NCBI GenBank assembly: GCA_018221065.1
Contig: JAAOXY010000082.1
Location: 1-39,123, forward strand
From: Candidatus Aenigmatarchaeota archaeon
GTDB lineage: Archaea; Aenigmatarchaeota; Aenigmatarchaeia; Aenigmatarchaeales; Aenigmatarchaeaceae
DNA: 39,123 nt
Direction: 5' to 3'
Shown: one piece after another, positions 16,721 to 33,235 of the stretch
Position numbering within the stretch: the stretch's first letter is position 1
Layout: every line of letters starts with the position of its first letter
Made by a program: the position numbers and the translations under genes
The notes under the pieces: model-generated
Databases searched by the model: none
Told to the model about the DNA's origin: nothing
The model's input: the letters and a program-made list of their open reading frames with translations, nothing else

Positions 16721-17194
16721 TTAAGGAGTTGCTTCAATGGTTCCACCTGGCCCATGAACTTCAAACCAATGAAGCGAATTGTCATGTTTGGCGAACATGT
16801 GGTATTGATCAATGCTATGAGTAATAACGATTGTAATATCACTTGAGATATCATTTATTTCCTGACAGGATCCGGTTGAAGCATATGTTTGATAATCAGT
16901 ATAATATGCTTCCTGTGCTAGTACTGCTGTGTGAAGTGCTGACATCGCATCTGTATCAAATGCTCTCACTCGATAATATGCAAACTGAGGAATTGCAATA
17001 GCAGCAAGGGTACCAATGATGGCTATAACTATTATCAACTCGATGAGAGTGAAACCTTTTTCATCGCTTCTAATCTTTATCATCTTTTTTGGTTTTGATC
17101 TAGAACCGAATTTAAGAATCCATAACACCAAGACGACACCGATCATGATTGAGAAACTCCAGATCATAAAATCATCACTTTGTAAATAAGTCAT
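16721..17194 (-). CDS. type IV pilin-like / pseudopilin-like protein (157 aa)
   Basis: ORF track. KGFTLIELIIVIAIIGTLAAIAIPQF is the prepilin N-terminal cleavage/methylation motif. A strong GGAGG RBS serves the long form starting at 17194. An internal ATG at 17083 would give a classic short leader. Confidence 0.75.
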   Translation of the reverse strand: MTYLQSDDFMIWSFSIMIGVVLVLWILKFGSRSKPKKMIKIRSDEKGFTLIELIIVIAIIGTLAAIAIPQFAYYRVRAFDTDAMSALHTAVLAQEAYYTDYQTYASTGSCQEINDISSDITIVITHSIDQYHMFAKHDNSLHWFEVHGPGGTIEATP

Positions 17195-17719: not shown

Positions 17720-18322
17720 ATGAATGATTATAATAAAGATAATTATGAGATCAAAAAATCTGATATTCATGGGCGTGGGGTTTTTTCAAATAAGAATTTT
17801 AGCGCAGGTGAATTGATTAATTTGGCTATTGATAATATGCAGGCAACACACTTCGGCGGATTCTTAAATCATTCTGATTCTCCAAATGCCGTTACAAGAA
17901 AAAATAAAAATAAGTATTATACTTTTGCTTTGGCTAGAATTAAACCAGGTGATGAAATAGCAGTTGATTATACTGTCAATAAAGATCTTGAGCAACCAGA
18001 ATCTACATGGAAATATCATCAAGAAGCTTCGCCAAATAATGGAGTATTCACTGATACAAATCCAAAAGTAGATGATGAAACTATTTCTTCTTTATATAAA
18101 GGGACTGTTCCTCAAGGAAAAAATGCTGAAGTAGAAGTTGATGACGATGTTGAAGAAAGCACAACTGCCAATCAACCAAATCCTGGTTTCGCTTCTGGGA
18201 TAGATAAGAGCCCGGACGATTCATATCTTAATCTTCTTAAAAAATCTATCAAACCAACAAAGATAGTAATCAATATAACTAAAGATAATAGGGGAGCTGA
18301 TCCTTATAATAAAGTTCACTAA
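17720..18322 (+). CDS. minimal SET-domain methyltransferase-like protein with acidic low-complexity tail (200 aa)
   Basis: ORF track. HGRGVFS..F.AGELI, GGFLNHSDSPNA (NHSxxPN motif), IKPGDEIAVDY (post-SET-like ELxxDY position). Confidence 0.75.
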   Translation: MNDYNKDNYEIKKSDIHGRGVFSNKNFSAGELINLAIDNMQATHFGGFLNHSDSPNAVTRKNKNKYYTFALARIKPGDEIAVDYTVNKDLEQPESTWKYHQEASPNNGVFTDTNPKVDDETISSLYKGTVPQGKNAEVEVDDDVEESTTANQPNPGFASGIDKSPDDSYLNLLKKSIKPTKIVINITKDNRGADPYNKVH

Positions 18323-19904: not shown

Positions 19905-20441
19905 ATGGAGAAATTAAAAAAAGAACTTGAAGAAACAAAGAAAGAATTAGAAAAAACTAAAACTGCTATTTGGGATATGATGAATTATTCTAGTATGTTT
20001 GTTTTAATTCTTGACGATAAAATGTGTATTCAATTTATCAACTGGAGTTTAGCTACAGCACTTGGTTTTAAAAATGAAGACGAGCCTCTTGGAAAATGTT
20101 GGTTGGATTTTATTCCAATAGAGCAGAGAGAAATTATATCAGGAATACATAATTCAATTAAAAATGCCGACGAAGAAAAACATAGAGAAATGATAAACGA
20201 TATTAAATGTGTCAATGGAGATGTGATGTCTATAAAATGGTTTAATACTAAAATAAACCGTGAACATGAATGGACTTTTAGTTTTGGTTTAGTAGTGGAA
20301 GCAGCCAATCAGGTTACAGAGGAATCTCTTAGATCATATTATCATGATATTATTCAGAAAGATCGAACTGCAATTTTGTCACTGAGGGATAAAATATTGA
20401 ACGGGTCTGTAACTCAAGATGTAGGCGAACCAAAACTTTAA
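19905..20441 (+). CDS. PAS-like domain protein (178 aa)
   Basis: ORF track. N-terminal coiled coil, then a PAS-fold-like pattern (..FVLILDDKMCIQFINWSLATALGF..E.LGK.WLDFIP...R..I...I... .DIKCVNGDVMSIKWFNT). Fold-level guess. Confidence 0.6.
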   Translation: MEKLKKELEETKKELEKTKTAIWDMMNYSSMFVLILDDKMCIQFINWSLATALGFKNEDEPLGKCWLDFIPIEQREIISGIHNSIKNADEEKHREMINDIKCVNGDVMSIKWFNTKINREHEWTFSFGLVVEAANQVTEESLRSYYHDIIQKDRTAILSLRDKILNGSVTQDVGEPKL

Positions 20442-20459
20442 TACACGAAAGGAACAACA

Positions 20460-23105
20460 ATGAATTTAAAGAAGATGCTAAAAATTGAAGGGGAGAATTT
20501 AGATGGTGAAATTAAGAAAAGGAATGATGCTAAAGAGGTATTAATATCAGTTAAATATGCTGATGGTCATATTCATCACATCCTACCAGATGAGACAGTA
20601 TCAAAAGAATTAGTTGAAGATGCTGCATCACAAGTCAATCTAGAGTTTTCCAAAGCAATTGAAAACCTCCCACCAGATGAAATCGTTTTTAAAAACCGTC
20701 AAGCGATTGGCGACATCTTAACCATGACAGCAGGAATACGAGATTTTAAAAGCGCTTTCCCAAATACCAGAGTTGGAGTAATAACAACTGCTATGCATCT
20801 CTGGGATCACAACCCTCATATTGATCATAACTTTAAAGACCCTGAAAAAATTTTAGAGATAGGACCGGGGTTTGCTACAAATAAATCAAACCTATGGAAT
20901 CTACATATGTGTAATGCCTTCCGTATGGATATAGAAAACAAACTTCATATTTCATTTCCACAGGGACCAATACGTCCAGATATATGGATGACACAAGAAG
21001 AATATAAACGACCGCCCTTGATTGATGGTCCATATTGGTTGTTTGTTTATGGTGGAGAACCTGGTTGGCCTGCCAAGCAATACCATTTATGGCAAAGAGT
21101 AATAAACATACTAAAAGATGATATTAAGATTGTTCAGCTTGGAGTTAAGGGTCATCCATATCCGCATCTTGATAATACAGTTGATTATATTGGAAAAACT
21201 GAAGATAGAAACACTGGTCTTAGAGATCTTTTTAATTTGTTTTTACATGCTCAAGGGTCGCTTGGTTTAGTTTCCATGCATATGCATTTAAGTGCTGCAT
21301 TTGGAAACCCCTGTGTAGTTGTTGCTGGAGCGCGTGAACCTGCATGGTTTACAAACTATTTTGGACATCAGTATATTCAATCAAATGGTACTATGTTTTG
21401 TGGTGATCATACAGCATGTTGGAAGTGTAAACTTGAAGGATGTCGTAATCTTATAGATAGTAAGATACCAAAATGTGTTGAGGTAATTGAACCTGAGGAA
21501 ATTGCTGATGGTGTTAGAAAGTATTATAGAGGTGGAAGATTAGAGTATGGGAAAAAGATTCCTAATAAATTTTTTAAGAATATAACCCAAGAATCAAGAG
21601 TGTTTGTCGCTCCAAAAACTGAACAAATCGATAATGACTATTTAAAGAAATGGGGATTCAAATGGGGTGGAGGATGCCTTACAGATAGAGATTGGATGTT
21701 TATGAAAGAGGCTATCAAAAAATATAAAGTTAAAAAGATTCTTGAGTTTGGTGCTGGTTTATCATCTCTATTGTTTGGAACCGTTGCTGATCATATAGTT
21801 ACTTATGAAACAATGCCAGGATGGATAAAGAAAGTAGAGCCATTTAAAACTCCAAAGAATACATTTTTGCTTTGGGATGGAAAAACAATTCCTTCTGTAG
21901 ATAAGTTTGATATGGTATTTGTAGATGGTCCGTCTGGTGGGGAAAATAGACAATGGTCAATCAAATATGCATCTGAACGTGCTGATCTGGTTATCGTTCA
22001 TGACGCAGGACGTGTTCCTGAAAGAGAATGGCAAGCCAAGTATCTTGAACCTGAATTTGAGTTAATAGCTAAAGGCGGGCATCGATGTCACATGTGGAAA
22101 AGAAGAACAGCGATTGTAGTCGATACATCGAAACCATTAGCAAGAATGTTAACCACATGTAGAGGTTATGGTGGAAGCGAAAGATCTACTATCAATATAA
22201 TGCAAATGTTATTAGATAAAGGCTATAGAGTAGAATTAGTACCAACCGGAAATATTAGTGGAGAGTATTTGAAAAATATTCCAGAGGGAGTAGTTAAACA
22301 GAATTGGGGACCTATATTAACAGAACCATCTGATTTGACAGTTTTTTATACAAGCGATACAATATGGAGTTTTAATAAAGAACCATATACTACATTTATG
22401 CCATATCTAAATACAAAAAGAAAGGTCATGGTTTTAAACTATAAAATCGGTGGAGCTGGAAATGTGGATTGGACTTTCGGTTGGGATAAATATTTATTCT
22501 TAAATTCTGAACATGAAGGGGAGATGATTAAGAGGATTCCACAAGCTGTAACTAAGGTGTTGGCACCACCAACTGATTTAACTGAATTTTTTAAAGTTCA
22601 ACCATATTATGGATTCCCTCTAAAACTGATCCGGCATAGTAGTCAAGGAGATAATAAATATCCTGATTATATGAATGATATGATAGAGAATATATTAGAA
22701 ATAAATCCGGGGATTGAGTTTCATTTTATGCCCCCAAGATCAGATTGTATGGTTCATCCACAAGTCCATAAATATGCAAAGAATCAACCTCCTGTATATG
22801 AGTTTCTGAAAAATGGAAATTGCTTCTTCTATCATTTACCCAATAATTATACTGAAGGAGGTCCTCGCACAATTGTAGAAGCTCATGCTTCTGGTTTATC
22901 AGTAATATGTGATAATCACTCTGGACCAAAAGATAGAGTTACAGATGAAACGGGTTGGCTGTGTAATAGTCAAGAAGATTATTTAGAAGTTATAAAAGAG
23001 ATTATAAATAAACCAGAACTTCTCAGGATTAAAGGAGAAGCTGCCAGAGAAAGAGCTAGAAAAGAATTTATTCCAGAAAAATGGATAGAGGAGATATTAA
23101 CATGA
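20460..23105 (+). CDS. three-domain fusion: GT9 (heptosyltransferase-like) / class I methyltransferase-like / GT4 glycosyltransferase (881 aa)
   Basis: ORF track. The N-terminal region has IGDILTMTAGIRDFKSAFPNTRVGVIT (GT9-like). The middle has ILEFGAGLSS...MVFVDGP (Rossmann SAM-like). The C-terminal region has EGGPRTIVEAHASGLSVI (GT4 EX7E motif). Confidence 0.8.
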   Translation: MNLKKMLKIEGENLDGEIKKRNDAKEVLISVKYADGHIHHILPDETVSKELVEDAASQVNLEFSKAIENLPPDEIVFKNRQAIGDILTMTAGIRDFKSAFPNTRVGVITTAMHLWDHNPHIDHNFKDPEKILEIGPGFATNKSNLWNLHMCNAFRMDIENKLHISFPQGPIRPDIWMTQEEYKRPPLIDGPYWLFVYGGEPGWPAKQYHLWQRVINILKDDIKIVQLGVKGHPYPHLDNTVDYIGKTEDRNTGLRDLFNLFLHAQGSLGLVSMHMHLSAAFGNPCVVVAGAREPAWFTNYFGHQYIQSNGTMFCGDHTACWKCKLEGCRNLIDSKIPKCVEVIEPEEIADGVRKYYRGGRLEYGKKIPNKFFKNITQESRVFVAPKTEQIDNDYLKKWGFKWGGGCLTDRDWMFMKEAIKKYKVKKILEFGAGLSSLLFGTVADHIVTYETMPGWIKKVEPFKTPKNTFLLWDGKTIPSVDKFDMVFVDGPSGGENRQWSIKYASERADLVIVHDAGRVPEREWQAKYLEPEFELIAKGGHRCHMWKRRTAIVVDTSKPLARMLTTCRGYGGSERSTINIMQMLLDKGYRVELVPTGNISGEYLKNIPEGVVKQNWGPILTEPSDLTVFYTSDTIWSFNKEPYTTFMPYLNTKRKVMVLNYKIGGAGNVDWTFGWDKYLFLNSEHEGEMIKRIPQAVTKVLAPPTDLTEFFKVQPYYGFPLKLIRHSSQGDNKYPDYMNDMIENILEINPGIEFHFMPPRSDCMVHPQVHKYAKNQPPVYEFLKNGNCFFYHLPNNYTEGGPRTIVEAHASGLSVICDNHSGPKDRVTDETGWLCNSQEDYLEVIKEIINKPELLRIKGEAARERARKEFIPEKWIEEILT

Positions 23106-23278
23106 AAGTAAAAGTTGGAGATAAAGTTTATGATGGGAACGATGTTCCTGTAATGGTTATTTTAAGAAAAGAGGATAAGGAGAATATTAAAAACATGCAT
23201 CCTGACGCAACAAAGTATTGTTCGTATCCAGAATCAATGACTGTTAAGGAAGTTCAGGAATGGATGAAAACTGAATAG
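23102..23278 (+). CDS. hypothetical protein (58 aa)
   Basis: ATG 23102 in an ATGA overlap with the upstream stop. GGAG upstream. Confidence 0.6.
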   Translation: MKVKVGDKVYDGNDVPVMVILRKEDKENIKNMHPDATKYCSYPESMTVKEVQEWMKTE

Positions 23279-23290
23279 AAAGGAGAAAAA

Positions 23291-23896
23291 ATGAATCTAA
23301 TAATTTCGCCTCATATTGATGATGAGGTAATAGGTTGTGGAGGAATGATTGATAAATGTGAAGAAGCATCATATGTTTATTTTTGTGGTGTTGAGGATTT
23401 TCATGAAATAAGTCAGTATGACAGATTAAAAGAAGTTAAAGATGTATCAGAATTCTTGAGCTATGAATGTGAAGTAAACCTTTTTTCGGTTGTTAATGGT
23501 TATAAAGTAGTAGATTTTATTGATATTTTTCAGGAAGTTATTAAGAGAGTAAAACCTGATAAAATATTTATTCCATATGCTTCTTATAACCAGGATCATC
23601 AAGCAGTTTATCATGCTGCTATGATAGCTTTGAGACCACATGACAGAAACTTCTTTGTTAAAAAAGTTCTGACATATGAGGGGATTGGAGCATTTCAATG
23701 GATGAACAATGATTATAAAGTTAATCATTTTGTTCCTATTAATGTTGATACAAAAGAATTAGCTTATGGTCTTCATAAGTCTCAAGTAAGAGAATTTAGA
23801 TCTATGAAGCATGTTAGAGCTTTAGCAGAATTAAGAGGATCACAAATTGGTGTTCCTTATGCTGAAGCATTTATAATAGAAAGGTGGGTAGAATAA
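23291..23896 (+). CDS. PIG-L / LmbE-family N-acetylglucosaminyl deacetylase (201 aa)
   Basis: ORF track. ISPHIDDEVIGCGG matches the PHxDDE signature. Confidence 0.8.
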   Translation: MNLIISPHIDDEVIGCGGMIDKCEEASYVYFCGVEDFHEISQYDRLKEVKDVSEFLSYECEVNLFSVVNGYKVVDFIDIFQEVIKRVKPDKIFIPYASYNQDHQAVYHAAMIALRPHDRNFFVKKVLTYEGIGAFQWMNNDYKVNHFVPINVDTKELAYGLHKSQVREFRSMKHVRALAELRGSQIGVPYAEAFIIERWVE

Positions 23897-24663
23897 TGGG
23901 ATTAGTAGAAAGGAAGTATGGTCATTTATTAGAAATAGCTTTGGAGTTGGGAAAGACATCTTCAGTATTAAGAGTTGAAGATAATAGTTTTACATATGCT
24001 AGAAATCCGCAATATCTTTCAAAGTTAAAAGATACAAAGAAAAATGTTCAGGTTATGGTACCTTTTCCTATATATAAAGAAGCTGAACAGTTACCAATGA
24101 ATGTTGATGTTCACTTTATAGATGGAGAAGATAATATAGAATATATATGGGCTTATATTCATAATGAAGTTAATAAAGACGTTGAACCAGCTCCTATCAT
24201 TATTGGAAATAATTGTTATATACATGAAACTGCAATTATTGGAGTTCATGGAAATACATATGCTCTGGCTCCAGATGGAAGTCGTATTCACTTAAAAGAA
24301 ATTGGCGGGGTTCGTCTTGAAGATGATGTAGATGTCGAAGCTTTGTCAATTGTCCATAGATCATGTTTTAATAATACAGTTATTGGTAAAGGTTCTAAGG
24401 TATGTGTTAAATGTAATATTGGACATAATGTTAGAATAGGAAAAAATTCATTAATAGCTCCTGGAGTCTTATTAGGCGGAGGCACTACAGTAGGGGATAA
24501 TTGTTTTATATGGCAAGGGGTTATTACCCGAAGTTATATAAATATTTGTGATAATGCAATTGTGGGAGCGGGTTCTGTAGTTCTACATGATCTAAGGGAG
24601 CCGGGAATATATATTGGCTCTCCAGCTAGGTATGTAAAACCATATGATGAAACTTTGAGGTAA
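23896..24663 (+). CDS. left-handed beta-helix (hexapeptide-repeat) acyl/acetyltransferase
   Basis: ATG 23896 in a TAATG overlap, GGTGG 8 nt upstream. Hexapeptide repeats IGHNVRIGKNSLIAPGVLLGGGTTVGDNCFIWQGV. Confidence 0.8.
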   Translation: MGLVERKYGHLLEIALELGKTSSVLRVEDNSFTYARNPQYLSKLKDTKKNVQVMVPFPIYKEAEQLPMNVDVHFIDGEDNIEYIWAYIHNEVNKDVEPAPIIIGNNCYIHETAIIGVHGNTYALAPDGSRIHLKEIGGVRLEDDVDVEALSIVHRSCFNNTVIGKGSKVCVKCNIGHNVRIGKNSLIAPGVLLGGGTTVGDNCFIWQGVITRSYINICDNAIVGAGSVVLHDLREPGIYIGSPARYVKPYDETLR

Positions 24664-24666
24664 ATT

Positions 24667-25671
24667 ATGAAAATAGTTGTAGAAGATGTGTTTGGAAAAA
24701 ATCAGTTTAATGCCTGTAAAGAATATAATAGAAGATTGGACGTTATGGAAATTAACATATCAAAGATACATAACAGTTCAAGTAAATCGAGATTTAAAGA
24801 AGGAACTTATGAAAGATGGTATAGGGAGGCTAATACTATTTATATGAATAATAAAAGAGATCAAGATCTGTTTGATAAACTGGGAAAAGATTTATGTGTT
24901 GTTATACCCTCTCATAGATATCAGAGAGTTTGGTTAAAGGCATGTTTGGAAGGAGTTTCTAAGCTTGGCTACTTTTCTATACTGGCTTATGATAATCCAT
25001 TTTTTCAACCAGCTCATAAATTAGATGCAATGCTTCCATCTCCAGCAACTCTTATGTTGGCTGATTATTTATCTTTCAAACCAAGGACTTATCATAGTGG
25101 GGTTGGTTTTCCTCATCTGTGGAATATGTTGTTTGCTGTTACTCAAGCACAGGCGTTTGGTTTTAAATATATATTTTGTATCAATGGTGACTTTATTATG
25201 GAGAGGCCAGAGAATTTTGAACAGCTAAGAGATATGTTGGGGGATGGAGATATATTTCCTTTGGCATGGGATCCAAAAAGACCAACTTGTGGAACTGCTG
25301 CCTTTATAGCAAAAACTGACCATCAGGTAGAATTTTGGAGAAATTATGCGAAAACCTTTTATCAAAATATGGGAAACGCCGAAGCAAGGCTTGGGAAATA
25401 TTATACAAAGAAGAAATTAAAAGTGGTCCATTTTGAGCCAGGCTCTTTATCACATCAGATGCCTAACCCTAAATCTACATGGTATAATACTATTGGTTTG
25501 AGGCATTTACATGCAGAGCATAAAATAAGAAAATGGAATAGGCAAGAACCCATTGAAGAAAAATATTTCGAGAAACAATTTTTTCCTCCTCCCGGAAAGA
25601 ATATAATAGAGCAATATTGGAGGACTGGAGATAAGAAATTTCTTAAGCAATGGTGGGGAAAAGGAAAATAA
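24667..25671 (+). CDS. hypothetical protein, possibly GT-A-like (334 aa)
   Basis: ORF track. CVVIPSHRY and a later NGD are only a weak hint. Embedded in the sugar island. Confidence 0.7.
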   Translation: MKIVVEDVFGKNQFNACKEYNRRLDVMEINISKIHNSSSKSRFKEGTYERWYREANTIYMNNKRDQDLFDKLGKDLCVVIPSHRYQRVWLKACLEGVSKLGYFSILAYDNPFFQPAHKLDAMLPSPATLMLADYLSFKPRTYHSGVGFPHLWNMLFAVTQAQAFGFKYIFCINGDFIMERPENFEQLRDMLGDGDIFPLAWDPKRPTCGTAAFIAKTDHQVEFWRNYAKTFYQNMGNAEARLGKYYTKKKLKVVHFEPGSLSHQMPNPKSTWYNTIGLRHLHAEHKIRKWNRQEPIEEKYFEKQFFPPPGKNIIEQYWRTGDKKFLKQWWGKGK

Positions 25672-25672
25672 T

Positions 25673-26605
25673 ATGGACACAAAAATTTATTATTATTTAG
25701 ATCAGGTAGAAAAACTCAGAAAAGGGGAATGGGTGCCACCTGTAACTTGTGAAATTGATACGTCCAATTATTGTATGCTATCTTGTGATTTCTGTATGTA
25801 TCAGAAATATATTGAAGGAGATAGAAGACATTTATCATATGATCTATATAATTCTCTATTATATGAACTTGATGAAATGGGAACCAAGAGTATAACATTT
25901 ACAGGCGGGGGCGAACCATTAATGAATCCAAAGATAAATCGTATGATTGAAGACGCTCTTAAAATGGAGTTTGAAATAGGGCTGGTTACAAATGGTTTTT
26001 TATTAGACAAAATAAATAATCTTGATAAGTTTAAGTTTATACGAGTTAGTCTTGATGCTTCAAACCCAAGTATGTATCAAGATGTAAAAGGAGTTGATTG
26101 TTTTTCCAGAGTAATAGATAATATTAAGATGACTCTCGAAAAGAATAAAACAGTTGGTTTAAGTTATGTTGTTAATGATAGGAATAATTTTGATTTAGAA
26201 GAGGCGGAGAAATTAGCTGATAAACTCGGAGTATCATATTTACAGTTTAAACCTGCTTGGATGAATGGAAAAGTATTTGATAATTATACTTTACCCGGAG
26301 GAAAAAATGTAATAAAAACAAATAGGTATCTAGCAAAGGATGATCTTCCATGCCTAATAGCTTCTCTTATTGGAGTTGTTGGAGCTGATGGAGAAATTTA
26401 TTTTTGCTGTCAACATAGAGGAAAGCCAAATTTTAGTTTGGGTAGTTTGTATGTTGATAGATTTGAAACTATCTGGAAACGAAGGTTTGATCTACATCCT
26501 GATATTTCAAAATGTCCTATGTGCAGGTATATGAATTATGCTGAGGCTTATAGAACAGTTTTGGAAAGGGGAACATTATTTTTTGAGCATAGGAATTTTT
26601 TATAA
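25673..26605 (+). CDS. radical SAM enzyme (310 aa)
   Basis: ORF track. CMLSCDFC (CxxxCxxC), GGGEP, and a C-terminal Cys cluster CCQH...CPMC suggesting an auxiliary Fe-S site. Confidence 0.85.
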   Translation: MDTKIYYYLDQVEKLRKGEWVPPVTCEIDTSNYCMLSCDFCMYQKYIEGDRRHLSYDLYNSLLYELDEMGTKSITFTGGGEPLMNPKINRMIEDALKMEFEIGLVTNGFLLDKINNLDKFKFIRVSLDASNPSMYQDVKGVDCFSRVIDNIKMTLEKNKTVGLSYVVNDRNNFDLEEAEKLADKLGVSYLQFKPAWMNGKVFDNYTLPGGKNVIKTNRYLAKDDLPCLIASLIGVVGADGEIYFCCQHRGKPNFSLGSLYVDRFETIWKRRFDLHPDISKCPMCRYMNYAEAYRTVLERGTLFFEHRNFL

Positions 26606-26661: not shown

Positions 26662-27672
26662 ATGTTACGAGACACTATGATAAGAGGAATAGCATCTGGG
26701 ACTTTAATATGGAAAGGTCCTTGGGTTGACAGTAGTGCCTATGTTGTCAATGATTTAGTCGAAAATAATGGTAGTTCGTATATTGCTACATCGGATCATA
26801 TTTCTTCTCCAGTAACAGAACCAGGAGACGGAACTTCCTGGACTACAGTATGGGATTTAGTAGCTGCAAAAGGCGCTGATGGTACTGATGGAGTAGATGG
26901 TCTTAATGGTTTAGACGGTGTAAGTTTTATATGGCGAGGACAGTGGTCCGATTCTAGTTCATATATAATTAATGACGTTGTATATAATAGCGGTAGTTCA
27001 TATATATCTACAGCAGATCATAACGCCAGTTTCCCAACAGAACCTGGGGACGGAACTTCCTGGACGACTGTCTGGGATTTAATGGCTCAAAAAGGTGACG
27101 ATGGAGATCAAGGACCTCAAGGACCAGATGGCCCACAAGGAGATCCAGGACCTCAAGGTCCAGCAGGTCAAGATGGAGTGTTTGATAGGTGTGATCAATT
27201 AATACTTGAAATGGAAATGGAGTTTAAAACTTCATTTCTTTGTAATTATAAAGAGTTTGCATATAGCGCTCAAAAACTATTAATTGATGTTGATATATAT
27301 ACTGATGCTACAGCTAATGTTAAATTATTTCATAAGGACCTAACATACAATGCTCAGAAACAACTAATCCAAACTGATCTTACGAGAATTTCAGATGGTG
27401 CATTGTTAACTAGCATTTTTTCATATGACGCTCAAAAGAATTTAATTTCAATAGAGAGAAGCGGTTATTGTTCTTGTTCAAGTAGCTCTTCAAGTAGTCG
27501 TAGTTCAAGTTCAAGTAGTAGATCAAGCTCATCAAGCAGTTGTAGTTCAAGTTCAAGCAGGAGTTCAATCTCATCAAGTTCAAGTAGTGCTGCTATTCCA
27601 GAAGGAGCAAGAATAACAGATGATGGAGAAATTCGGATAACAGATGATGGAGAGACCAGAATTATAGATTAA
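26662..27672 (+). CDS. collagen-like tail fibre protein with duplicated CBM5/12-like module and poly-Ser tract (336 aa)
   Basis: ORF track. Two copies of IW.G.W..SS.Y..ND.V...GSSYI.T.DH....TEPGDGTSWTTVWDL, each followed by G-X-Y repeats. Ser-rich tract near 27466-27590. Confidence 0.8.
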   Translation: MLRDTMIRGIASGTLIWKGPWVDSSAYVVNDLVENNGSSYIATSDHISSPVTEPGDGTSWTTVWDLVAAKGADGTDGVDGLNGLDGVSFIWRGQWSDSSSYIINDVVYNSGSSYISTADHNASFPTEPGDGTSWTTVWDLMAQKGDDGDQGPQGPDGPQGDPGPQGPAGQDGVFDRCDQLILEMEMEFKTSFLCNYKEFAYSAQKLLIDVDIYTDATANVKLFHKDLTYNAQKQLIQTDLTRISDGALLTSIFSYDAQKNLISIERSGYCSCSSSSSSSRSSSSSSRSSSSSSCSSSSSRSSISSSSSSAAIPEGARITDDGEIRITDDGETRIID

Positions 27673-27684
27673 GAGGAAAATAAA

Positions 27685-28161
27685 ATGTCAAAAAAAATAT
27701 CAGAGTTAGACAGTCCAACATTACCTTTAACTGGTACTGAATTAATGGAAATGTCACAAGATAGTACATCTGTCCAAGTGACCATTATACAATTAGGAAA
27801 CAGCATTGGTTATGTTGACCGTGGTGATCCTTCTGGGGATGATCTTAATAAAGCAGGTATGACACTAGATAGTGCCTGGAATATTTGGGATGTATCTGCT
27901 GTGGTCCCTGCCGGAGCAACGGCAGTAGAATTGGAAATTACTCAGGTCAATACTAATGTTGGAAAGAGATTAGAATTTAGAAAGAATGGAAATTCAAAGG
28001 AAAAGAATATACTGGCACATAAACAAATAGTTTCCTCAGTCACAGAGGTATGGGGAGGTAAAGTTTCTTGTGATTCTAATCGTATCATAGAATATTTTGC
28101 TACTGGAACTGCTGTACCTTGGATTTCTATAGCAATAGTTATAAGAGGTTGGTACATTTAA
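27685..28161 (+). CDS. fibre-associated protein, tandem paralog A (158 aa)
   Basis: ORF track. About 80 percent identical by eye to 28172..28648. Confidence 0.8.
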   Translation: MSKKISELDSPTLPLTGTELMEMSQDSTSVQVTIIQLGNSIGYVDRGDPSGDDLNKAGMTLDSAWNIWDVSAVVPAGATAVELEITQVNTNVGKRLEFRKNGNSKEKNILAHKQIVSSVTEVWGGKVSCDSNRIIEYFATGTAVPWISIAIVIRGWYI

Positions 28162-28171
28162 GGAAAATAAA

Positions 28172-28648
28172 ATGGAAAAAAAAATATCACAATTAGCAAG
28201 CCCAACATTATCTTTAACTGGTACTGAATTAATGGAAATGTCACAAGATGGTACGTCTGTCCAAATAACAATCATACAGTTGGGAAATAATATTAGTTAT
28301 GTAGACCGTGGTGATCCTTCGGTATTTGATCTTGAAGAGGGTTCTATGATTTTAGATAGCGCCTGGCATATTTGGGATGTATCCTCAGTAGTTCCGACCG
28401 GAGCAGTAGCAATAGAATTGGTAATTACTCAGGTCAATACTATTGTTGGAAAGAGATTAGAATTTAGAAAGAATGGAAATTCAAATGAAAAGAATATACT
28501 GGGACATAAACAAATAGTTTCCTCAGTCACAGAGGTATGGGGAGGTAAAGTTTCTTGTGATTCTAATCGTATCATAGAATACTTTGCTACAGGTACAGCT
28601 GGAAACTGGACTACAGTGCAGGTCGTTATAAGAGGATGGTACATATAA
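28172..28648 (+). CDS. fibre-associated protein, tandem paralog B (158 aa)
   Basis: ORF track. The nucleotide sequence is near-identical to paralog A over most of the 3' third. Confidence 0.8.
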   Translation: MEKKISQLASPTLSLTGTELMEMSQDGTSVQITIIQLGNNISYVDRGDPSVFDLEEGSMILDSAWHIWDVSSVVPTGAVAIELVITQVNTIVGKRLEFRKNGNSNEKNILGHKQIVSSVTEVWGGKVSCDSNRIIEYFATGTAGNWTTVQVVIRGWYI

Positions 28649-29577: not shown

Positions 29578-30018
29578 ATGAATTGTGATGGGTGTACAAT
29601 GTGTTGTAATTTATTACATATACCCTGGATGGATTCTCCAGCAGGGGAATGGTGTAAACATTGTGATGTTGATAAAGGGTGTAAGATTTATAATACATCA
29701 CCAAAAAAATGCTTGAATTTTAATTGTGCATATAAACAGATGGAGAAAGCATCAATAAATCTACGGCCTGATAAATGTAGTGTAATATTTGAAAAGATTG
29801 GAGATAGAATCTTTATTGGAACTGTGGATCCAAAGGTGACCAAACTTCAAGAAATAGTATTTAGACAAATTGATGCTTTTCTAGCAGAAGGATTTTCTGT
29901 TGTACTATTTAATCAAAAAATCAAAGAGCCTTTGATTTATAATACTTTAGGAATTACACAAGATGAAGTTTGGAAAATTGTCCAAATGGAGGCACAAAAA
30001 TTAGATGACCGCTCCTAA
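29578..30018 (+). CDS. YkgJ-type CxxCxxCC putative Zn/Fe-chelating protein (146 aa)
   Basis: ORF track. N-terminal CDGCTMCC plus further Cys pairs. Confidence 0.7.
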   Translation: MNCDGCTMCCNLLHIPWMDSPAGEWCKHCDVDKGCKIYNTSPKKCLNFNCAYKQMEKASINLRPDKCSVIFEKIGDRIFIGTVDPKVTKLQEIVFRQIDAFLAEGFSVVLFNQKIKEPLIYNTLGITQDEVWKIVQMEAQKLDDRS

Positions 30019-31618
30019 TTATTCGACAGATTTAATATTAATTAATGATGCCGAAAGCGGTACATGGGTAGAAATGGGTTCTCCATATAATGCCGGTGGG
30101 GCACCAGATAATGGAGAGCAAGATTATTTTATTCAAGGTGCTGGTTGCACAAGTCAATCTCTTTCATCATCTAAATCTGGCCTATTATTCTCAATAGCAT
30201 ATGATAACGCTTCAGATTTAAGCGGCTCATTTGCAACAGATGATTGTTTCTTTATGTGGCAGGTACTACTTGCTGGAAATGCTATGGAAACTTTTGCTAA
30301 TGGTGGATTGCGTGCAGTTATAGGAGCAGATCAAAATAATGCTGATGTATGGTTTAGTGGAGGAAGTGATTTCGGTAGAAACCCATATGGTGGTTGGCAA
30401 AATGTTGCTATTGATCCTACCTATACTCCTGTTGATCAAACAATTGGTGGCGGAAGTGGAGGAGCTTGGCAGTTTTTTGGATCTCTTATTAACACTATAG
30501 CAGCTATTTCAAAAGGACAAATGCATGGAGTAGATGCTCTTAGATATGGACGTGGTGAACTTATAGTGGAAGGCGGTGATGGCCCCAATGGTTTTGCTAC
30601 ATTTGATGGGATGGCTGCTAATAATGATTCTCAAAATAACAGATGGGGACTTTTTCAAGATATAGCTGGTGGATTTTTATATAAAGGTCTAATGTCTATT
30701 GGAAGTGATGCAACAGCTGTAAATTTTGTAGACTTGAATAAGGTTATAAATATTGATGTTACTCCCAGAACATATTCTACTTTTAATAAGATTGAAATCA
30801 ATAACTCCAATACTAGAGTAAATTGGGACGGGATACTAATATCTTCTCTTGATGGAACATCATTATCACCAGGACAACTTGAAGTAACAGACGCAACTGC
30901 TGATGTTACCATGATTGACTGTGCGTTTACAGATATGGATACACTTATATTTCAAGAGGGGTGTGCCATTAATGGTACAACATTTCGTAGATGTGGATTA
31001 GTTTCTCAAAACAATGGAACTTTTGACGGGTGCACCTTTGATGAGTCTGATGCTACAGCTTCAATATTTGTTACAAATTTAGATAATATAACTAATAGTG
31101 ATTTTACTAGCGATGGTCTTAATCACGCCATAGAATTAAGTACCGATCATGCTGGAGGTACATTTTCATTAGATGGATGCACATTTAATGAATATGCTAT
31201 TTCAGATGGAGACACGGGAAACGAATCTATTTATAATAATAGTGGCGGAGCCGTGACGATAAATATAATAAACGGTTCTATTCCGTCTGTCAGAAACGGA
31301 GTTGGAGCTTCAACTACTGTAATATTATCTCTTGATTGGTATTTTGAAATTCAAAATGAAGCTGGAACTATCGTAACTAATGCAGAATTTAGAATATATG
31401 ATGATAACGATAATGAATTATATGGAGTTGAGACAAGTAGTGGAACTGAAAAATATACATTTAGCGGAACTATTTCTGGAACTGATGCCAGGATAGTAGT
31501 TCTGAGCCTTGATTATCTATATTTTACACAGACTTTAACTCATCCATCAACATCAAATTCTGCAGCGGCACCTATTGTAATTACTCTTGTTGTAGACAGA
31601 GTTTATGATAATCCATAA
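30005..31618 (+). CDS. putative tailspike / fibre protein with beta-helix-like repeats (537 aa)
   Basis: ORF track. Repetitive N.G.F..C.F segments (INGTTFRRCGLVSQNNGTFDGCTFDESD). The function is an inference. Confidence 0.7.
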   Translation: MTAPNYSTDLILINDAESGTWVEMGSPYNAGGAPDNGEQDYFIQGAGCTSQSLSSSKSGLLFSIAYDNASDLSGSFATDDCFFMWQVLLAGNAMETFANGGLRAVIGADQNNADVWFSGGSDFGRNPYGGWQNVAIDPTYTPVDQTIGGGSGGAWQFFGSLINTIAAISKGQMHGVDALRYGRGELIVEGGDGPNGFATFDGMAANNDSQNNRWGLFQDIAGGFLYKGLMSIGSDATAVNFVDLNKVINIDVTPRTYSTFNKIEINNSNTRVNWDGILISSLDGTSLSPGQLEVTDATADVTMIDCAFTDMDTLIFQEGCAINGTTFRRCGLVSQNNGTFDGCTFDESDATASIFVTNLDNITNSDFTSDGLNHAIELSTDHAGGTFSLDGCTFNEYAISDGDTGNESIYNNSGGAVTINIINGSIPSVRNGVGASTTVILSLDWYFEIQNEAGTIVTNAEFRIYDDNDNELYGVETSSGTEKYTFSGTISGTDARIVVLSLDYLYFTQTLTHPSTSNSAAAPIVITLVVDRVYDNP

Positions 31619-31870: not shown

Positions 31871-33235
31871 ATGGCTAAGATAGTTGATCCAGATGATCTA
31901 AATCAAGGAACCGAAATTATCATTGATGCTACGGCATTAACAATTGCATTACAAGTTGCAGGAAATTTATCATGGGATGGGGTATCTTTAAAAGCCCTTT
32001 ACTCATTTATTAAGGAAGAGTGGAGATATGATGCTGATCTTATTCCAGTAGTCTTTCCATTTACTCCTATTACTGATGAACAGTTTGAACTAATCAATGG
32101 ATGGGATTTTGCTGATTCAACATCTGAGCTTCTTATTCGAGATGGTGGTTGGGCTGTAACCGATGTTGGTGTAACTTCAAAATCATTTTTTAATTTAACT
32201 ACGCTTGGATCGTTTGAAGATTCAAACAATGATAGAGCTTATTATATTCAACAAGCAGATCAAACTGCTGTTATATATACAAATTTGGCTGGTGAGGTAA
32301 ACCAGGGTATTCAATTCTTTCAAAATGGAGTATATGACTACTCTGACTTTTTTAAGATTTTCTTAAGAGAGCAGGGTAAAAGATATGATAGTTACGACCT
32401 TTTAACTGAACAGAATTTGACTTCATTGACTTACCGTAAGTATGCGTTGCCTTTATCAAACTCATTAGATGCTAATATTTCTGCTAGTGATAATGATATT
32501 GAAACAGATACTGGAGCCGCATATTCTACTATTACAGTATCGTACTATTCTACTGTGCAAAATAAAGATATTGGAGGTACTTTATATCCATTCCATGTTG
32601 TTATTGATGCTGCTGGTTTGACTAAAGATTTTGTTTATGAAAAGATTCAATATTTACTAAGGCAAGATGCTGATATTGATGCTGGCCCAGATTTTCTATA
32701 TGTCTGGGGTACAGTAACAGATGAATTATTACAATTTATTGGGAATGATCTTTATACCAATCTAACATCATTTGGTGGAACATTTATCGAGAATCATAAT
32801 GTTGACGATGAAAATAATATCTTTTTCACCGATGATAATGGAGTTGTAAGATTTTATCCATTTGTTTCAACTGGACAAATTAACTTTAATGATAACTTAC
32901 AAAATGATCCAGATGCTTTCTTCTGGATGTTCTATACAACAAACCCAAGTGGAAATTATGGAACAAAAGACGCTATTATTGTTCAAGATGCATCGGATTC
33001 AACTGCAAATGATATTGCGGCACTTATTAATGGAGCAGCAGCATATCAATTTACATATGATTATGATAATAATAACCAGGGAGGGAGAACCCCTGCAACT
33101 GATGCAGATATTACGCTTGTAGCTATTGGATTAGATACTGCTCAATATGTTTCAACTACAGGAACGATTGCTAGAGCGAAGAGTCAACAATACTCATTAG
33201 TTGCACCGCTTGAAAGAAACTATTCAAATCCGTAA
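31871..33235 (+). CDS. putative virion structural protein (454 aa)
   Basis: ORF track. AAGGAG RBS. No motif recognised; the call rests on context only. Confidence 0.75.
   Translation: MAKIVDPDDLNQGTEIIIDATALTIALQVAGNLSWDGVSLKALYSFIKEEWRYDADLIPVVFPFTPITDEQFELINGWDFADSTSELLIRDGGWAVTDVGVTSKSFFNLTTLGSFEDSNNDRAYYIQQADQTAVIYTNLAGEVNQGIQFFQNGVYDYSDFFKIFLREQGKRYDSYDLLTEQNLTSLTYRKYALPLSNSLDANISASDNDIETDTGAAYSTITVSYYSTVQNKDIGGTLYPFHVVIDAAGLTKDFVYEKIQYLLRQDADIDAGPDFLYVWGTVTDELLQFIGNDLYTNLTSFGGTFIENHNVDDENNIFFTDDNGVVRFYPFVSTGQINFNDNLQNDPDAFFWMFYTTNPSGNYGTKDAIIVQDASDSTANDIAALINGAAAYQFTYDYDNNNQGGRTPATDADITLVAIGLDTAQYVSTTGTIARAKSQQYSLVAPLERNYSNP

Follow-up and report, generated by a model that had tools for sequence, protein, structure and literature searches.

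A phage gene cluster proposed to O-glycosylate poly-serine tracts of virion fibres

The gene cluster at positions 20460-26605 of the window, the 39-kb contig of a metagenomic phage, probably encodes a cytoplasmic O-glycosylation system that would modify the poly-Ser tracts of virion fibres and tailor the glycan in variable ways. In the window, the substrate would, as the best explanation, be the collagen-like protein encoded directly downstream. The first-pass annotation had named the virion fibres, the host envelope and DNA as candidate targets; comparison with related loci points to the poly-Ser tract on the virion and speaks against DNA, for which no modification partner enzymes were detected, while the envelope is less well excluded. 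The genes concerned are the following:

20460-23105, + strand: GT9-like/methyltransferase/GT4 fusion enzyme, 881 aa, three domains
23102-23278, + strand: small ORF, 58 aa from an ATG preceded by a Shine-Dalgarno motif (65 aa from 23081)
23291-23896, + strand: PIG-L/LmbE-family de-N-acetylase, 201 aa, predicted accessory tailoring enzyme
23896-24663, + strand: left-handed β-helix (LbH, hexapeptide) acyltransferase, predicted accessory tailoring enzyme, 255 aa (259 aa from the listed start 23884)
24667-25671, + strand: predicted GT-A-fold glycosyltransferase, 334 aa, new small family
25673-26605, + strand: radical SAM enzyme, 310 aa, PF04055
26662-27672, + strand: collagen-like fibre protein, 336 aa, downstream of the six genes, proposed acceptor

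The six ORFs all lie on the + strand where they had been placed initially, and both the ORF list and the junction sequences bear out their description as co-directional and tightly packed. Intergenic gaps within the cluster are 1-12 nt, the fusion stop and the small-ORF start overlap in ATGA (translational coupling), the PIG-L stop and the LbH start overlap in TAATG, and a Shine-Dalgarno-like motif is found upstream of each of the six genes. The likelier start of the small ORF is 23102, and that of LbH is 23896 because of the TAATG overlap with PIG-L. The six genes form one Shine-Dalgarno-driven, translationally coupled block inside the structural-gene block, continuous with the fibre genes, and the collagen-like fibre gene expected after the cluster is indeed present. 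No hydrophobic segment of transmembrane length was found in any of the six proteins. GC content does not differ between the cluster and its flanks and, therefore, the term “island” used at first is a functional and not a compositional label.

The packing is confirmed, but the cluster is not one evolutionary unit: it consists of a three-gene core and a variable three-gene cassette. The core, conserved in close relatives, comprises the fusion, GT-A and radical SAM genes, which adjoin each other in six of them, whereas the cassette (small ORF, PIG-L and LbH) occurs among close relatives only in the nearest one, L109. There, the small ORF has a homolog at the same position (66% identical) and the PIG-L homolog is 74% identical, this being the only close relative with PIG-L. 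A weaker match to the small ORF, which has no Pfam, NCBIfam or PHROG family hits, occurs in L010; PIG-L is also encoded in L049 and L076; and in 12 of 83 loci the radical SAM gene lies next to the fusion or GT-A gene.

The association that points to the acceptor is with poly-Ser proteins. The collagen-like protein contains two CBM5/12-like repeats, G-X-Y repeats, a poly-Ser tract and a short tail of ITDDGE repeats, with matches to Collagen (3.5e-6), CBM_5_12 (1.1e-4) and the tail fibre family phrog_5073 (4e-27). Its tract is short (residues ~265-312, nt 27466-27590, ~45 aa), is encoded by mixed AGY and TCN codons and is retained, at different lengths, in the orthologs of L005 and L107. When poly-Ser ORFs were defined by at least 18 Ser in a 30-residue window, 53 of the 79 viral loci that the fusion retrieved encoded one on the same strand at a distance of up to 10 kb; these loci are related by descent, so that the counts are not independent events. 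The fusion loci hold 87 such ORFs, 71 of which reach at least 25 Ser in 30 residues; the 27 control loci anchored on a ligase (0.52 Mb), which form one redundant clade from other samples, have none. The tracts have a median length of 149 aa (maximum 1,467 aa), are 77% Ser and are C-terminal in 66 of 91 cases. All six Ser codons are used and, therefore, serine itself appears to be under selection. The genomes that hold the loci range from AT-rich to GC-rich. Where they can be recognised by sequence, the carriers appear to be tail/fibre or other virion proteins, with matches to a tail protein (phrog_1101, 2.4e-49), tail fibre, virion structural protein and ConA-like lectin domains. The distribution across the fusion loci is bimodal, with extreme tracts or nothing: no poly-Ser or S/T-rich protein is within view in 26 of 83 loci, and at least one locus lacking a nearby tract has poly-Ser elsewhere on its contig. 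A reverse search starting from poly-Ser-coding DNA found a fusion or GT-A gene in the short flanks of 6 of 41 strong loci (five contigs, four of them new), while the other 35 poly-Ser viral loci had no fusion in their short flanks.

As for the enzymes, profile searches agree with the domains first assigned, namely the glycosyltransferase/methyltransferase/glycosyltransferase fusion, PIG-L, the hexapeptide acyltransferase and radical SAM. The fusion, of which more than 313 full-length homologs were found and whose AF2 model has a pLDDT of 84.3, is divided into a GT9-like domain (~70-385), a class I SAM-dependent methyltransferase (~390-550) and a GT4 domain of GT-B fold (~556-881), and in L109 it is naturally split into proteins of 565 and 318 aa. 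The C-terminal domain passes the PF00534 (GT1/GT4) cut-off (35.1 bits vs 26.4, residues 775-865), which assigns it by sequence to CAZy GT4 / PF00534 and a predicted GT-B fold; the best Foldseek matches of this part are PglA, BshA, PimB', HepE and WaaG. SdgB, which modifies Ser-Asp repeats, is also among the top Foldseek hits of the fusion. The middle domain matches O-methyltransferases in a profile search of the PDB (3ntv, 2.6e-6; 2yvl, 8.4e-6; 3r3h, 1.6e-4) and carries an invariant glycine-rich E-F-G-x-G-x-S motif (LEFGAGLSS, residues 429-435 of the window's protein) and an invariant FVDGP, and is thus a predicted class I SAM-dependent methyltransferase.

The N-terminal domain is best described, from its profile matches, as GT9-like and not as a clear family member. 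PF01075 (CAZy GT9) gave no hit for the fusion protein of the window, is recorded for some homologs and matches 4 of 12 N-terminal domains (best 2.7e-4); a heptosyltransferase model, TIGR02201, matches residues 83-125 with 19.2 bits vs a cut-off of 170.2; and a profile search of PDB sequences with this domain found nothing. Of the enzymes compared by alignment, TibC, which O-heptosylates protein serines, appears nearer to the domain than WaaC and WaaF, which add heptose to LPS. Foldseek aligns the fusion with TibC (4rap/4rb4) at E~1e-8, 18% identity and an rmsd of ~4.7 Å, and hhalign aligns the N-terminal domain with TibC 186-386 at E 7.4e-5 over 187 columns, a weak match (probability 62%) that nevertheless exceeds the controls WaaC (0.019) and WaaF (0.002 over 43 columns). 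The GT-B (GT9-like) core is homologous to that of TibC by this weak match.

TibC and AAH (BAHT family) are soluble enzymes of the cytoplasm; they form a dodecameric ring and hyper-glycosylate secreted or surface proteins at many serines, heptosylating those in autotransporter passenger domains; TibC uses Asp110 as catalytic base, binds ADP-heptose through T226, K230, R286 and W305 and needs its N-terminal β-barrel (residues 1-97) for activity (PMC4358343). Like these enzymes, the fusion has a GT-B/GT9-like core and is predicted to be soluble from its lack of transmembrane segments. The invariant K206 aligns with the essential K230 of TibC, and the catalytic base D110 falls outside the aligned region, the fusion having an invariant G84-D85 at the GT9-typical position. 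Four cysteines of the domain are invariant (C314, C320, C328 and C339) and C323 is conserved at ≥90%; this cluster lies in the same C-lobe insertion as the four-cysteine iron finger (Cys4 knuckle) of TibC, and in the weak hhalign match C314, C328 and C339 align with three of its four cysteines (C342, C358 and C370). TibC C339 has no aligned Cys in the fusion, so that the fourth ligand of this putative metal site would be C320 or C323. On the other hand, TibC W305 is matched by the invariant H276 and R286 by L257, which lies two columns away from the invariant R255, and P300 is likewise not conserved; therefore, the donor may not be ADP-heptose. Unlike TibC, the phage domain shares its polypeptide with a methyltransferase and a GT4 domain and has no N-terminal β-barrel: residues 1-67 have no hhalign alignment to TibC and are modelled by AF2 as helices with two short strands. 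Where TibC acts on a β-helix strand-loop-strand motif, the acceptor presumed here is a disordered poly-Ser tract, and no autotransporter gene is encoded in the window.

The 334-aa protein, a real ORF previously left as an unknown, belongs, by its predicted structure, to a new, small family of GT-A-fold glycosyltransferases. Pfam, NCBIfam and PHROG searches gave no hits for it, and no CAZy-family sequence model matches. Its AF2 model (pLDDT 92.9, pTM 0.90) matches α-1,3-GalT, glycogenin, the LH3 GT domain, GnT-I and WrtF in the PDB (E~3e-6), with probability 1.0 and TM 0.34-0.42 to GT6, GT8, GT13 and LH3 GT domains, and viral GT-A glycosyltransferases in BFVD also match. A search of 1.84 billion proteins yielded only 129 representatives of the family, which carries N173-G174-D175 in place of DxD, and D109, N173, D175, E239, G277, R279 and E284 are invariant. 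Its distant members are fused to GT9 (P0422), methyltransferase, sulfotransferase or deacetylase-like domains. The two glycosyltransferase domains first noted are thus both in the fusion, and with the GT-A protein the total becomes three or four modules.

Among the tailoring enzymes, the radical SAM protein passes PF04055 (66.9 bits vs 29.5) and SPASM PF13186 (22.1 bits vs 21.5). Its CX3CX2C motif (C34/C38/C41) and five C-terminal cysteines (C227/C245/C246/C281/C284), predicted to hold a twitch/SPASM-like auxiliary cluster, are invariant in 31 family members. PDB matches include MoaA (2.4e-7), SkfB, YydG, BlsE and DesII, all NCBIfam hits to functional subfamilies are far below cut-off, and the more than 318 homologs are all unnamed. 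PIG-L passes PF02585 (37.9 bits vs 28.2) and aligns with diacetylchitobiose deacetylase (4.6e-5), including the PHxDD and DH motifs (SPHIDDE, QDHQ). The LbH protein passes Hexapep (53 bits vs 27) and matches LpxD in the PDB (6e-23), where IGHN, around the catalytic His, pairs with IAHN; it is thus classed as an LbH acyltransferase whose core resembles LpxD and whose catalytic-His region is conserved. Its identification as LpxD itself was rejected: the TIGR01853 match (8e-38) scores 130.2 bits, below the equivalog cut-off of 242.5, and covers LpxD residues 159-308 only, the N-terminal 104 residues have no match to LpxD, whose own N-terminal domain binds uridine, and the protein stops where the C-terminal, ACP-binding helices of LpxD begin. 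The conserved catalytic motifs are consistent with the proposed logic of re-acylation by a deacetylase and an N-acyltransferase.

The same enzymes could instead remodel the host envelope (LPS core, capsule or teichoic acid) during infection or lysogeny, adding heptose or HexNAc and re-acylating amino sugars to block superinfection or change serotype. GT9, GT4, LpxD-like and PIG-L are classic envelope-glycan families, and JGI labels the fusion homologs “ADP-heptose:LPS heptosyltransferase”. Nevertheless, this is an unlikely reading, since membrane segments, flippase, polymerase and ligase are missing, the genes lie in the structural block and not in an early or lysogeny module, the LpxD and BshB matches are far under curated cut-offs, the N-terminal domain aligns better to TibC, and the poly-Ser association is left unexplained. 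Quite unlikely, too, is glycosylation at ordinary Ser/Thr sites of capsid, tail or fibre proteins, with poly-Ser as flexible spacers common in the same lineages. Polyserine linkers are spacers in bacterial carbohydrate-active enzymes, which is a point for this explanation, as are the 26 fusion loci without poly-Ser in view. The mycobacteriophage precedent, with its short C-terminal S/T-rich extensions, also favours it (PMC12619734). Against it, the association crosses very different genomes in its all-or-nothing form, and the search from poly-Ser DNA recovered new contigs with the fusion.

It is very unlikely that the cluster has an auxiliary metabolic function and makes a glycoconjugate, soluble or lipid-linked, in the manner of BshA/BshB or MshA/MshB, with a GT4 step followed by PIG-L and acylation: the GT4 domain does have BshA among its best structural matches, and in NCBIfam PIG-L matches BshB1 and BshB2 best, but the latter score far under cut-off (22.9 vs 182.5 bits), cysteine ligase and other thiol-pathway genes are absent, and PIG-L and LbH are missing in most relatives while the fusion, GT-A and poly-Ser proteins persist. 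DNA hypermodification for restriction evasion is highly improbable, for although phage glycosyltransferases often glycosylate hydroxymethylated bases, the contig showed no gene for a cytosine methyltransferase, TET/5mYOX, hydroxymethylase or base kinase, the cluster sits in the structural module beside the fibres, the GT9/TibC-like and GT-A families differ from described DNA glycosyltransferases, and the poly-Ser link would be unexplained.

Glycosylation of the poly-Ser tracts has further parallels besides TibC. In the Gram-positive serine-rich-repeat (SRR) and SD-repeat adhesins (GtfA/GtfB, SdgA/SdgB), cytoplasmic GT4-type enzymes add HexNAc to very long Ser-rich repeats, further GT-A/GT8-type enzymes extend the glycan, and the product is a fibrillar surface appendage, with a dedicated accessory Sec export and a chaperone-like GtfB partner. 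GT4 and GT-A enzymes and a long Ser-rich fibre as proposed acceptor are common to both; unlike those systems, the phage cluster is viral and has no accessory Sec or GtfB-like partner, and its tracts are near-pure Ser and not SASA/SD dipeptide repeats. The chlorovirus PBCV-1 protein A064R resembles the fusion in joining two GT domains and a methyltransferase in one polypeptide, and it makes a methylated glycan on a virion protein; clustered virus-encoded sugar-tailoring genes also serve giant-virus fibril glycosylation. However, A064R has GT-A-type domains and acts on N-linked glycans of a capsid protein in a eukaryotic virus; it is unlike the phage system in fold types, linkage, acceptor and host domain. 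Virion glycosylation in mycobacteriophages also involves an O-methyltransferase. There, the O-glycosylation of C-terminal extensions on virion structural proteins by phage-encoded glycosyltransferases is established, which makes it a precedent (Freeman et al. 2023, cited in PMC12619734). Set against that account by description and not by sequence, the enzyme families and architecture here differ, the acceptors are 50 to >1,000 serines on fibres as opposed to short capsid or tail-tube extensions, and radical SAM, PIG-L and LbH tailoring is not among the features it reports.

Set beside the observed domain identities, conserved catalytic motifs, core/accessory structure and poly-Ser virion-protein association, the scheme that we infer for acceptor, donor sugars, order of steps and biological role would run as follows. 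The N-terminal GT9/TibC-like or the C-terminal GT4 domain would put the first sugar, from a nucleotide sugar, onto the tract serines; the remaining GT-B domain and the separate GT-A enzyme would lengthen the glycan; the embedded methyltransferase would O-methylate it; and the radical SAM enzyme may carry out a radical tailoring of the sugar, or possibly of the peptide. In this phage and its nearest relative, by family logic, PIG-L would strip the N-acetyl group from a HexNAc glycoside, the reaction that BshB, MshB and PIG-L carry out once a GT4 has acted, and the LpxD-like acyltransferase would add a different acyl group to the free amine. No earlier description of poly-Ser fibre glycosylation by fusion-type enzymes was found in the literature. 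If the scheme is true, the product would be a mucin-like glycan brush on the fibres, and the spread of these loci suggests that phage fibres sugar-coated on poly-Ser are a widespread, hitherto undescribed kind.

The six open reading frames that the first-pass annotation had listed between 20460 and 26605 were all recovered on the + strand at their coordinates in the ORF list, and encode an 881-aa fusion protein (20460-23105), a small ORF product, a PIG-L deacetylase, a hexapeptide acyltransferase (LbH), a 334-aa protein (24667-25671, GT-A in what follows) and a radical SAM enzyme (25673-26605). Intergenic gaps inside the cluster are 1–12 nt, the fusion overlaps the small ORF (ATGA) and PIG-L overlaps LbH (TAATG), and a Shine-Dalgarno-like motif precedes every gene; on the basis of the overlaps and of these motifs, the likeliest starts are 23102 for the small ORF and 23896 for LbH. 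Promoter and terminator scans gave nothing convincing between the cluster and the genes before and after it, with gene boundaries not above shuffled expectation, the GC content of the cluster is unremarkable, and none of the 6 proteins contains a hydrophobic segment of transmembrane length. Nucleotide and tblastn searches with the cluster against 50,697 GenBank phage records returned no matches.

Annotation of the whole 39,123-bp contig reveals the gene content of a tailed virus, with small, minus-strand early genes including an ATP-dependent DNA ligase, and with an HNH endonuclease and a collagen-like tail-fibre protein. The contig was deposited in a “Candidatus Aenigmarchaeota archaeon” MAG (protein GOV02_03105), and those carrying homologs are labelled Heimdallarchaeaceae, Pacearchaeota or Deltaproteobacteria; because their gene content is viral, all of them are probably mis-binned virus contigs, or else possibly archaeal viruses. 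PHROGs and Pfam identify no terminase, no portal and no major capsid protein across the 39-kb contig, and a terminal repeat is absent from the window. The syntenic contigs L004 and L107, which come from other samples, measure 39,765 and 39,748 bp and carry the fusion at different offsets, and these sizes and offsets hint at a complete, permuted genome of ~39.5 kb. Stop-codon recoding was tested as the cause of the sparse long minus-strand ORFs and was rejected. The genes neighbouring the cluster include:

16721-17194, - strand, type IV pilin-like protein with a prokaryotic N-terminal methylation motif (PF07963, 8.4e-9; weak ComP_DUS match)
17720-18322, + strand, SET-domain protein, 200 aa, a few genes upstream of the cluster
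19905-20441, + strand, PAS-domain protein (weak Pfam match), directly upstream of the fusion
27685-28161 and 28172-28648, + strand, two tandem 158-aa paralogs (487-bp repeat unit, 86% identical), after the collagen-like fibre gene
30005-31618, + strand, 537-aa protein, repetitive and Asn/Gly/Thr-rich, no family matches
31871-33235, + strand, 454-aa homolog of the Syn5 structural protein gp53 (44.6% identity, full length)

The SET-domain protein, unusual for a phage, keeps its position in four related loci (L109, L004, L107 and L108), three of which (L004, L107 and L108) have a response-regulator receiver with several PAS domains at the place of the PAS gene, and a small N_methyl protein similar to the pilin-like one occurs also in L109. 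The tandem paralogs, which have no family matches, may be alternative fibre tips or chaperones, while the repetitive sequence of the 537-aa protein, homologs of which follow GT-A genes in L005, L006 and L107, suggests a beta-helix tailspike. Further matches of the gp53-like protein are in S-TIP28 and Maribacter phage Panino, and its L107 counterpart shares 82% identity.

The fusion is made up of three domains, the C-terminal one scoring above the Pfam GT1/GT4 threshold and matching, in a Foldseek search with the AF2 model, the GT4 enzymes PglA, BshA, PimB' and HepE. The profile of the middle domain, in which an EFGxGxS motif is invariant, retrieves class I SAM-dependent O-methyltransferases from the PDB (3ntv, 2.6e-6; 3r3h, 1.6e-4). 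The N-terminal domain is GT9-like, weakly, by sequence models, and a PDB sequence search with its profile gave no match. TibC, an iron-containing autotransporter heptosyltransferase which, like AAH, heptosylates serines of autotransporters (PMC4358343), is among the Foldseek matches of highest identity to the fusion; since Foldseek reports no query range, this match was assigned to the N-terminal domain by hhalign, with TibC as encoded on the chromosome of ETEC H10407. The similarity is marginal (E 7.4e-5, probability 62%, 187 columns corresponding to the TibC C-lobe). In this alignment the invariant C314, C328 and C339 of the fusion fall exactly on the TibC iron-finger residues C342, C358 and C370, and its invariant K206 on the essential K230. 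Clearly weaker scores were obtained by the same profile against the LPS heptosyltransferases WaaC (E 0.019) and WaaF (E 0.002 over 43 columns). The N-terminal beta-barrel of TibC is, however, absent from the fusion, and W305 and R286 are not conserved; because several TibC features are missing, the domain is best classified, from its sequence, as a relative of the TibC lineage rather than a member, and its donor may be a sugar other than ADP-heptose. Metagenomes hold >313 full-length homologs of the fusion, which is naturally split in L109 into a GT9-like plus methyltransferase protein and a GT4 protein. One homolog of 1,340 aa, P0197, contains intein/LAGLIDADG domains (PF14890, PF14528), so that in some phages an intein resides in the fusion gene.

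The 334-aa protein, without a match in Pfam, NCBIfam or PHROGs, is predicted by its AlphaFold model (pLDDT 92.9) to be a GT-A-fold glycosyltransferase, the nearest structures being alpha-1,3-galactosyltransferase, glycogenin and the LH3 glycosyltransferase domain; the model also resembles many viral glycosyltransferases. Its family, with invariant D109, N173, D175, E239, G277, R279 and E284, is small (129 representatives in 1.84 billion proteins), was recovered in viral contigs by HMMs and not by a single-protein scan, and has distant members fused to a GT9 domain, methyltransferases, a sulfotransferase or a deacetylase-like domain. The PIG-L protein is above the Pfam threshold and keeps its metal-binding motifs. 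The LbH protein most closely resembles LpxD's beta-helix core and keeps the catalytic-His region, but it falls below the LpxD equivalog threshold and is without the LpxD terminal domains. The radical SAM protein combines the canonical cluster motif with five invariant C-terminal cysteines and belongs to a family of >318 unnamed metagenomic proteins, with no functional subfamily assignable.

The first-pass annotation had described the six genes as one island. They are indeed present and packed, but they do not form one unit: the fusion, GT-A and radical SAM genes are adjacent in six close relatives (L109, L004, L107, L108, L033 and L055), whereas the small ORF, PIG-L and LbH are found, among these, only in the nearest one, L109, where PIG-L and GT-A are separated by four additional genes, namely two unknowns, one Methyltransf_24 and another LbH. 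Across 83 loci the pattern is that of a conserved glycosylation core and a rapidly exchanged tailoring cassette: the GT-A family, frequently as a tandem pair, is present in about two thirds of those loci that have enough downstream sequence, the radical SAM family in 12 of the 83, and PIG-L and LbH sporadically. The sugar genes around the fusion differ in two further loci, L002 (7618-8694 and 11342-14160; a DegT-type aminotransferase, several methyltransferases and a MORN-repeat protein) and L001 (4882-9915; a 928-aa multi-GT2 protein and an NAD-dependent epimerase/dehydratase), which supports a variable glycan-tailoring neighbourhood.

A genomic association links the fusion to poly-serine proteins. 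In the first related contig examined, from a GC-rich phage that has genes for terminase, portal and capsid, the fusion is flanked by two proteins with long SSSSSSR-type tracts. In a forward test, 53 of 79 viral loci retrieved via the fusion have at least one poly-Ser ORF (at least 18 Ser per 30-residue window), although these loci are related by descent and their counts are therefore not independent; the ORFs number 87, are nearly all on the fusion's strand, and in 71 cases reach at least 25/30. None was found in 27 ligase-anchored loci, a weak control because these represent one redundant clade. The flanks examined around the loci were short. The distribution is bimodal, tract-free loci showing nothing intermediate, and in one of these, L026, poly-Ser is found at another place of the contig (L161). 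The tracts have a median length of 149 residues (maximum 1,467), are 77% Ser and are C-terminal in 66/91 proteins; all six serine codons are used, which indicates that the amino acid is selected and not a DNA repeat. Those carriers that can be identified by their non-Ser parts belong to the tail, tail-fibre or virion structural proteins and have lectin-like domains. A reverse search from the AGY/TCN serine-codon pattern alone yielded 41 strong poly-Ser loci, six of them with a fusion or GT-A gene in their short flanks; these six correspond to five contigs, four previously unseen. The window's own carrier is the collagen-like fibre, the gene of which lies 56 nt downstream of the cluster. Its tract, of about 45 residues only, is retained, at differing length, in the orthologs of L005 and L107 and is followed by the end of the protein:

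27591-27669, + strand, tandem peptide repeat ending the fibre protein after the poly-Ser tract, ARITDDGEIRITDDGETRIID, 24-nt period

On the 188-kb viral contig L013, a fusion homolog is flanked by the gene of a 2,553-aa protein (L013:13538-21199), ~1,300 residues of which are in poly-Ser tracts, and by a 1,634-aa ORF (L013:3-4907) with ~1,470 such residues; both would be extreme cases of the proposed acceptor class.

The simplest model joining these observations, which we favour with moderate confidence, is that the cluster is a phage-encoded cytoplasmic O-glycosylation system for the poly-Ser tracts of virion appendages. The analysis establishes what the domains are, that their motifs are conserved, how core and cassette are arranged and that the genes are associated with poly-Ser proteins, whereas the poly-Ser acceptor, the choice of initiating glycosyltransferase, the donor sugars, the methylation target and the radical SAM substrate are inferences within the model. 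Tailoring would proceed from HexNAc transfer to de-N-acetylation and N-re-acylation, by analogy with the bacillithiol, mycothiol and GPI pathways, in which a GT4 step is followed by a PIG-L step. Among other readings, remodelling of the envelope is unlikely, and glycosylation of the virion at other sites, with poly-Ser a mere spacer, is slightly less likely still; a pathway for a small-molecule glycoside appears improbable. Glycosylation of DNA, for which no base-modifying partner enzymes were found in the 39-kb contig, is very improbable. Returning to the O-glycosylation of poly-Ser, a broader and more tentative proposal, to which we give slightly less than even chances, is that many uncultured phages, AT-rich and GC-rich, with genomes from ~40 kb to >200 kb, make “phage mucins”, virion fibres or appendages whose serine tails, tens to >1,000 residues without a break, would receive dense O-glycosylation in the cytoplasm of the host. 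The dedicated phage-encoded machinery would consist of the TibC-like Ser-O-glycosyltransferase/methyltransferase/GT4 fusion and the private GT-A family, with the radical SAM enzyme in some clades, and glycan diversity would come from a hypervariable cassette that encodes a deacetylase, acyltransferases, and methyl- and sulfotransferases.

Gram-positive bacteria glycosylate serine-rich-repeat (SRR) and SD-repeat adhesins. These systems are, together with TibC/AAH, mycobacteriophage virion glycosylation and A064R, a GT-GT-MT enzyme of a chlorovirus, the closest to the one proposed here, yet none has the same enzyme architecture or a near-pure poly-Ser acceptor. To our knowledge, phage virion glycosylation has so far been demonstrated essentially in mycobacteriophages alone. 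The glycosylation of mycobacteriophage virion proteins is stated in PMC12619734, which cites Freeman 2023. No relevant paper came up when the literature was searched for a link between glycosyltransferases and phage proteins that are poly-serine or serine-rich. For the glyco-engineering of serine-rich polypeptides, the three-domain enzyme would be useful together with its tailoring cassette, and the routine annotation of such proteins as LPS heptosyltransferases in archaeal and bacterial MAGs would be corrected. If the link is real, phage-encoded glycosylation of virion proteins would be common among environmental phages, with very long poly-serine tails as an unrecognised acceptor and the fusion, the radical SAM enzyme and the private GT-A as uncharacterised enzyme families; “phage mucins”, if true, would be a new, widespread class of viral glycoproteins with a new enzyme system for poly-Ser glycosylation. 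A glycan brush on the fibres could alter how virions adsorb to host glycans, or to mucus and marine particles, how well they withstand proteases and decay in the environment, and how host defences or antibodies recognise them.
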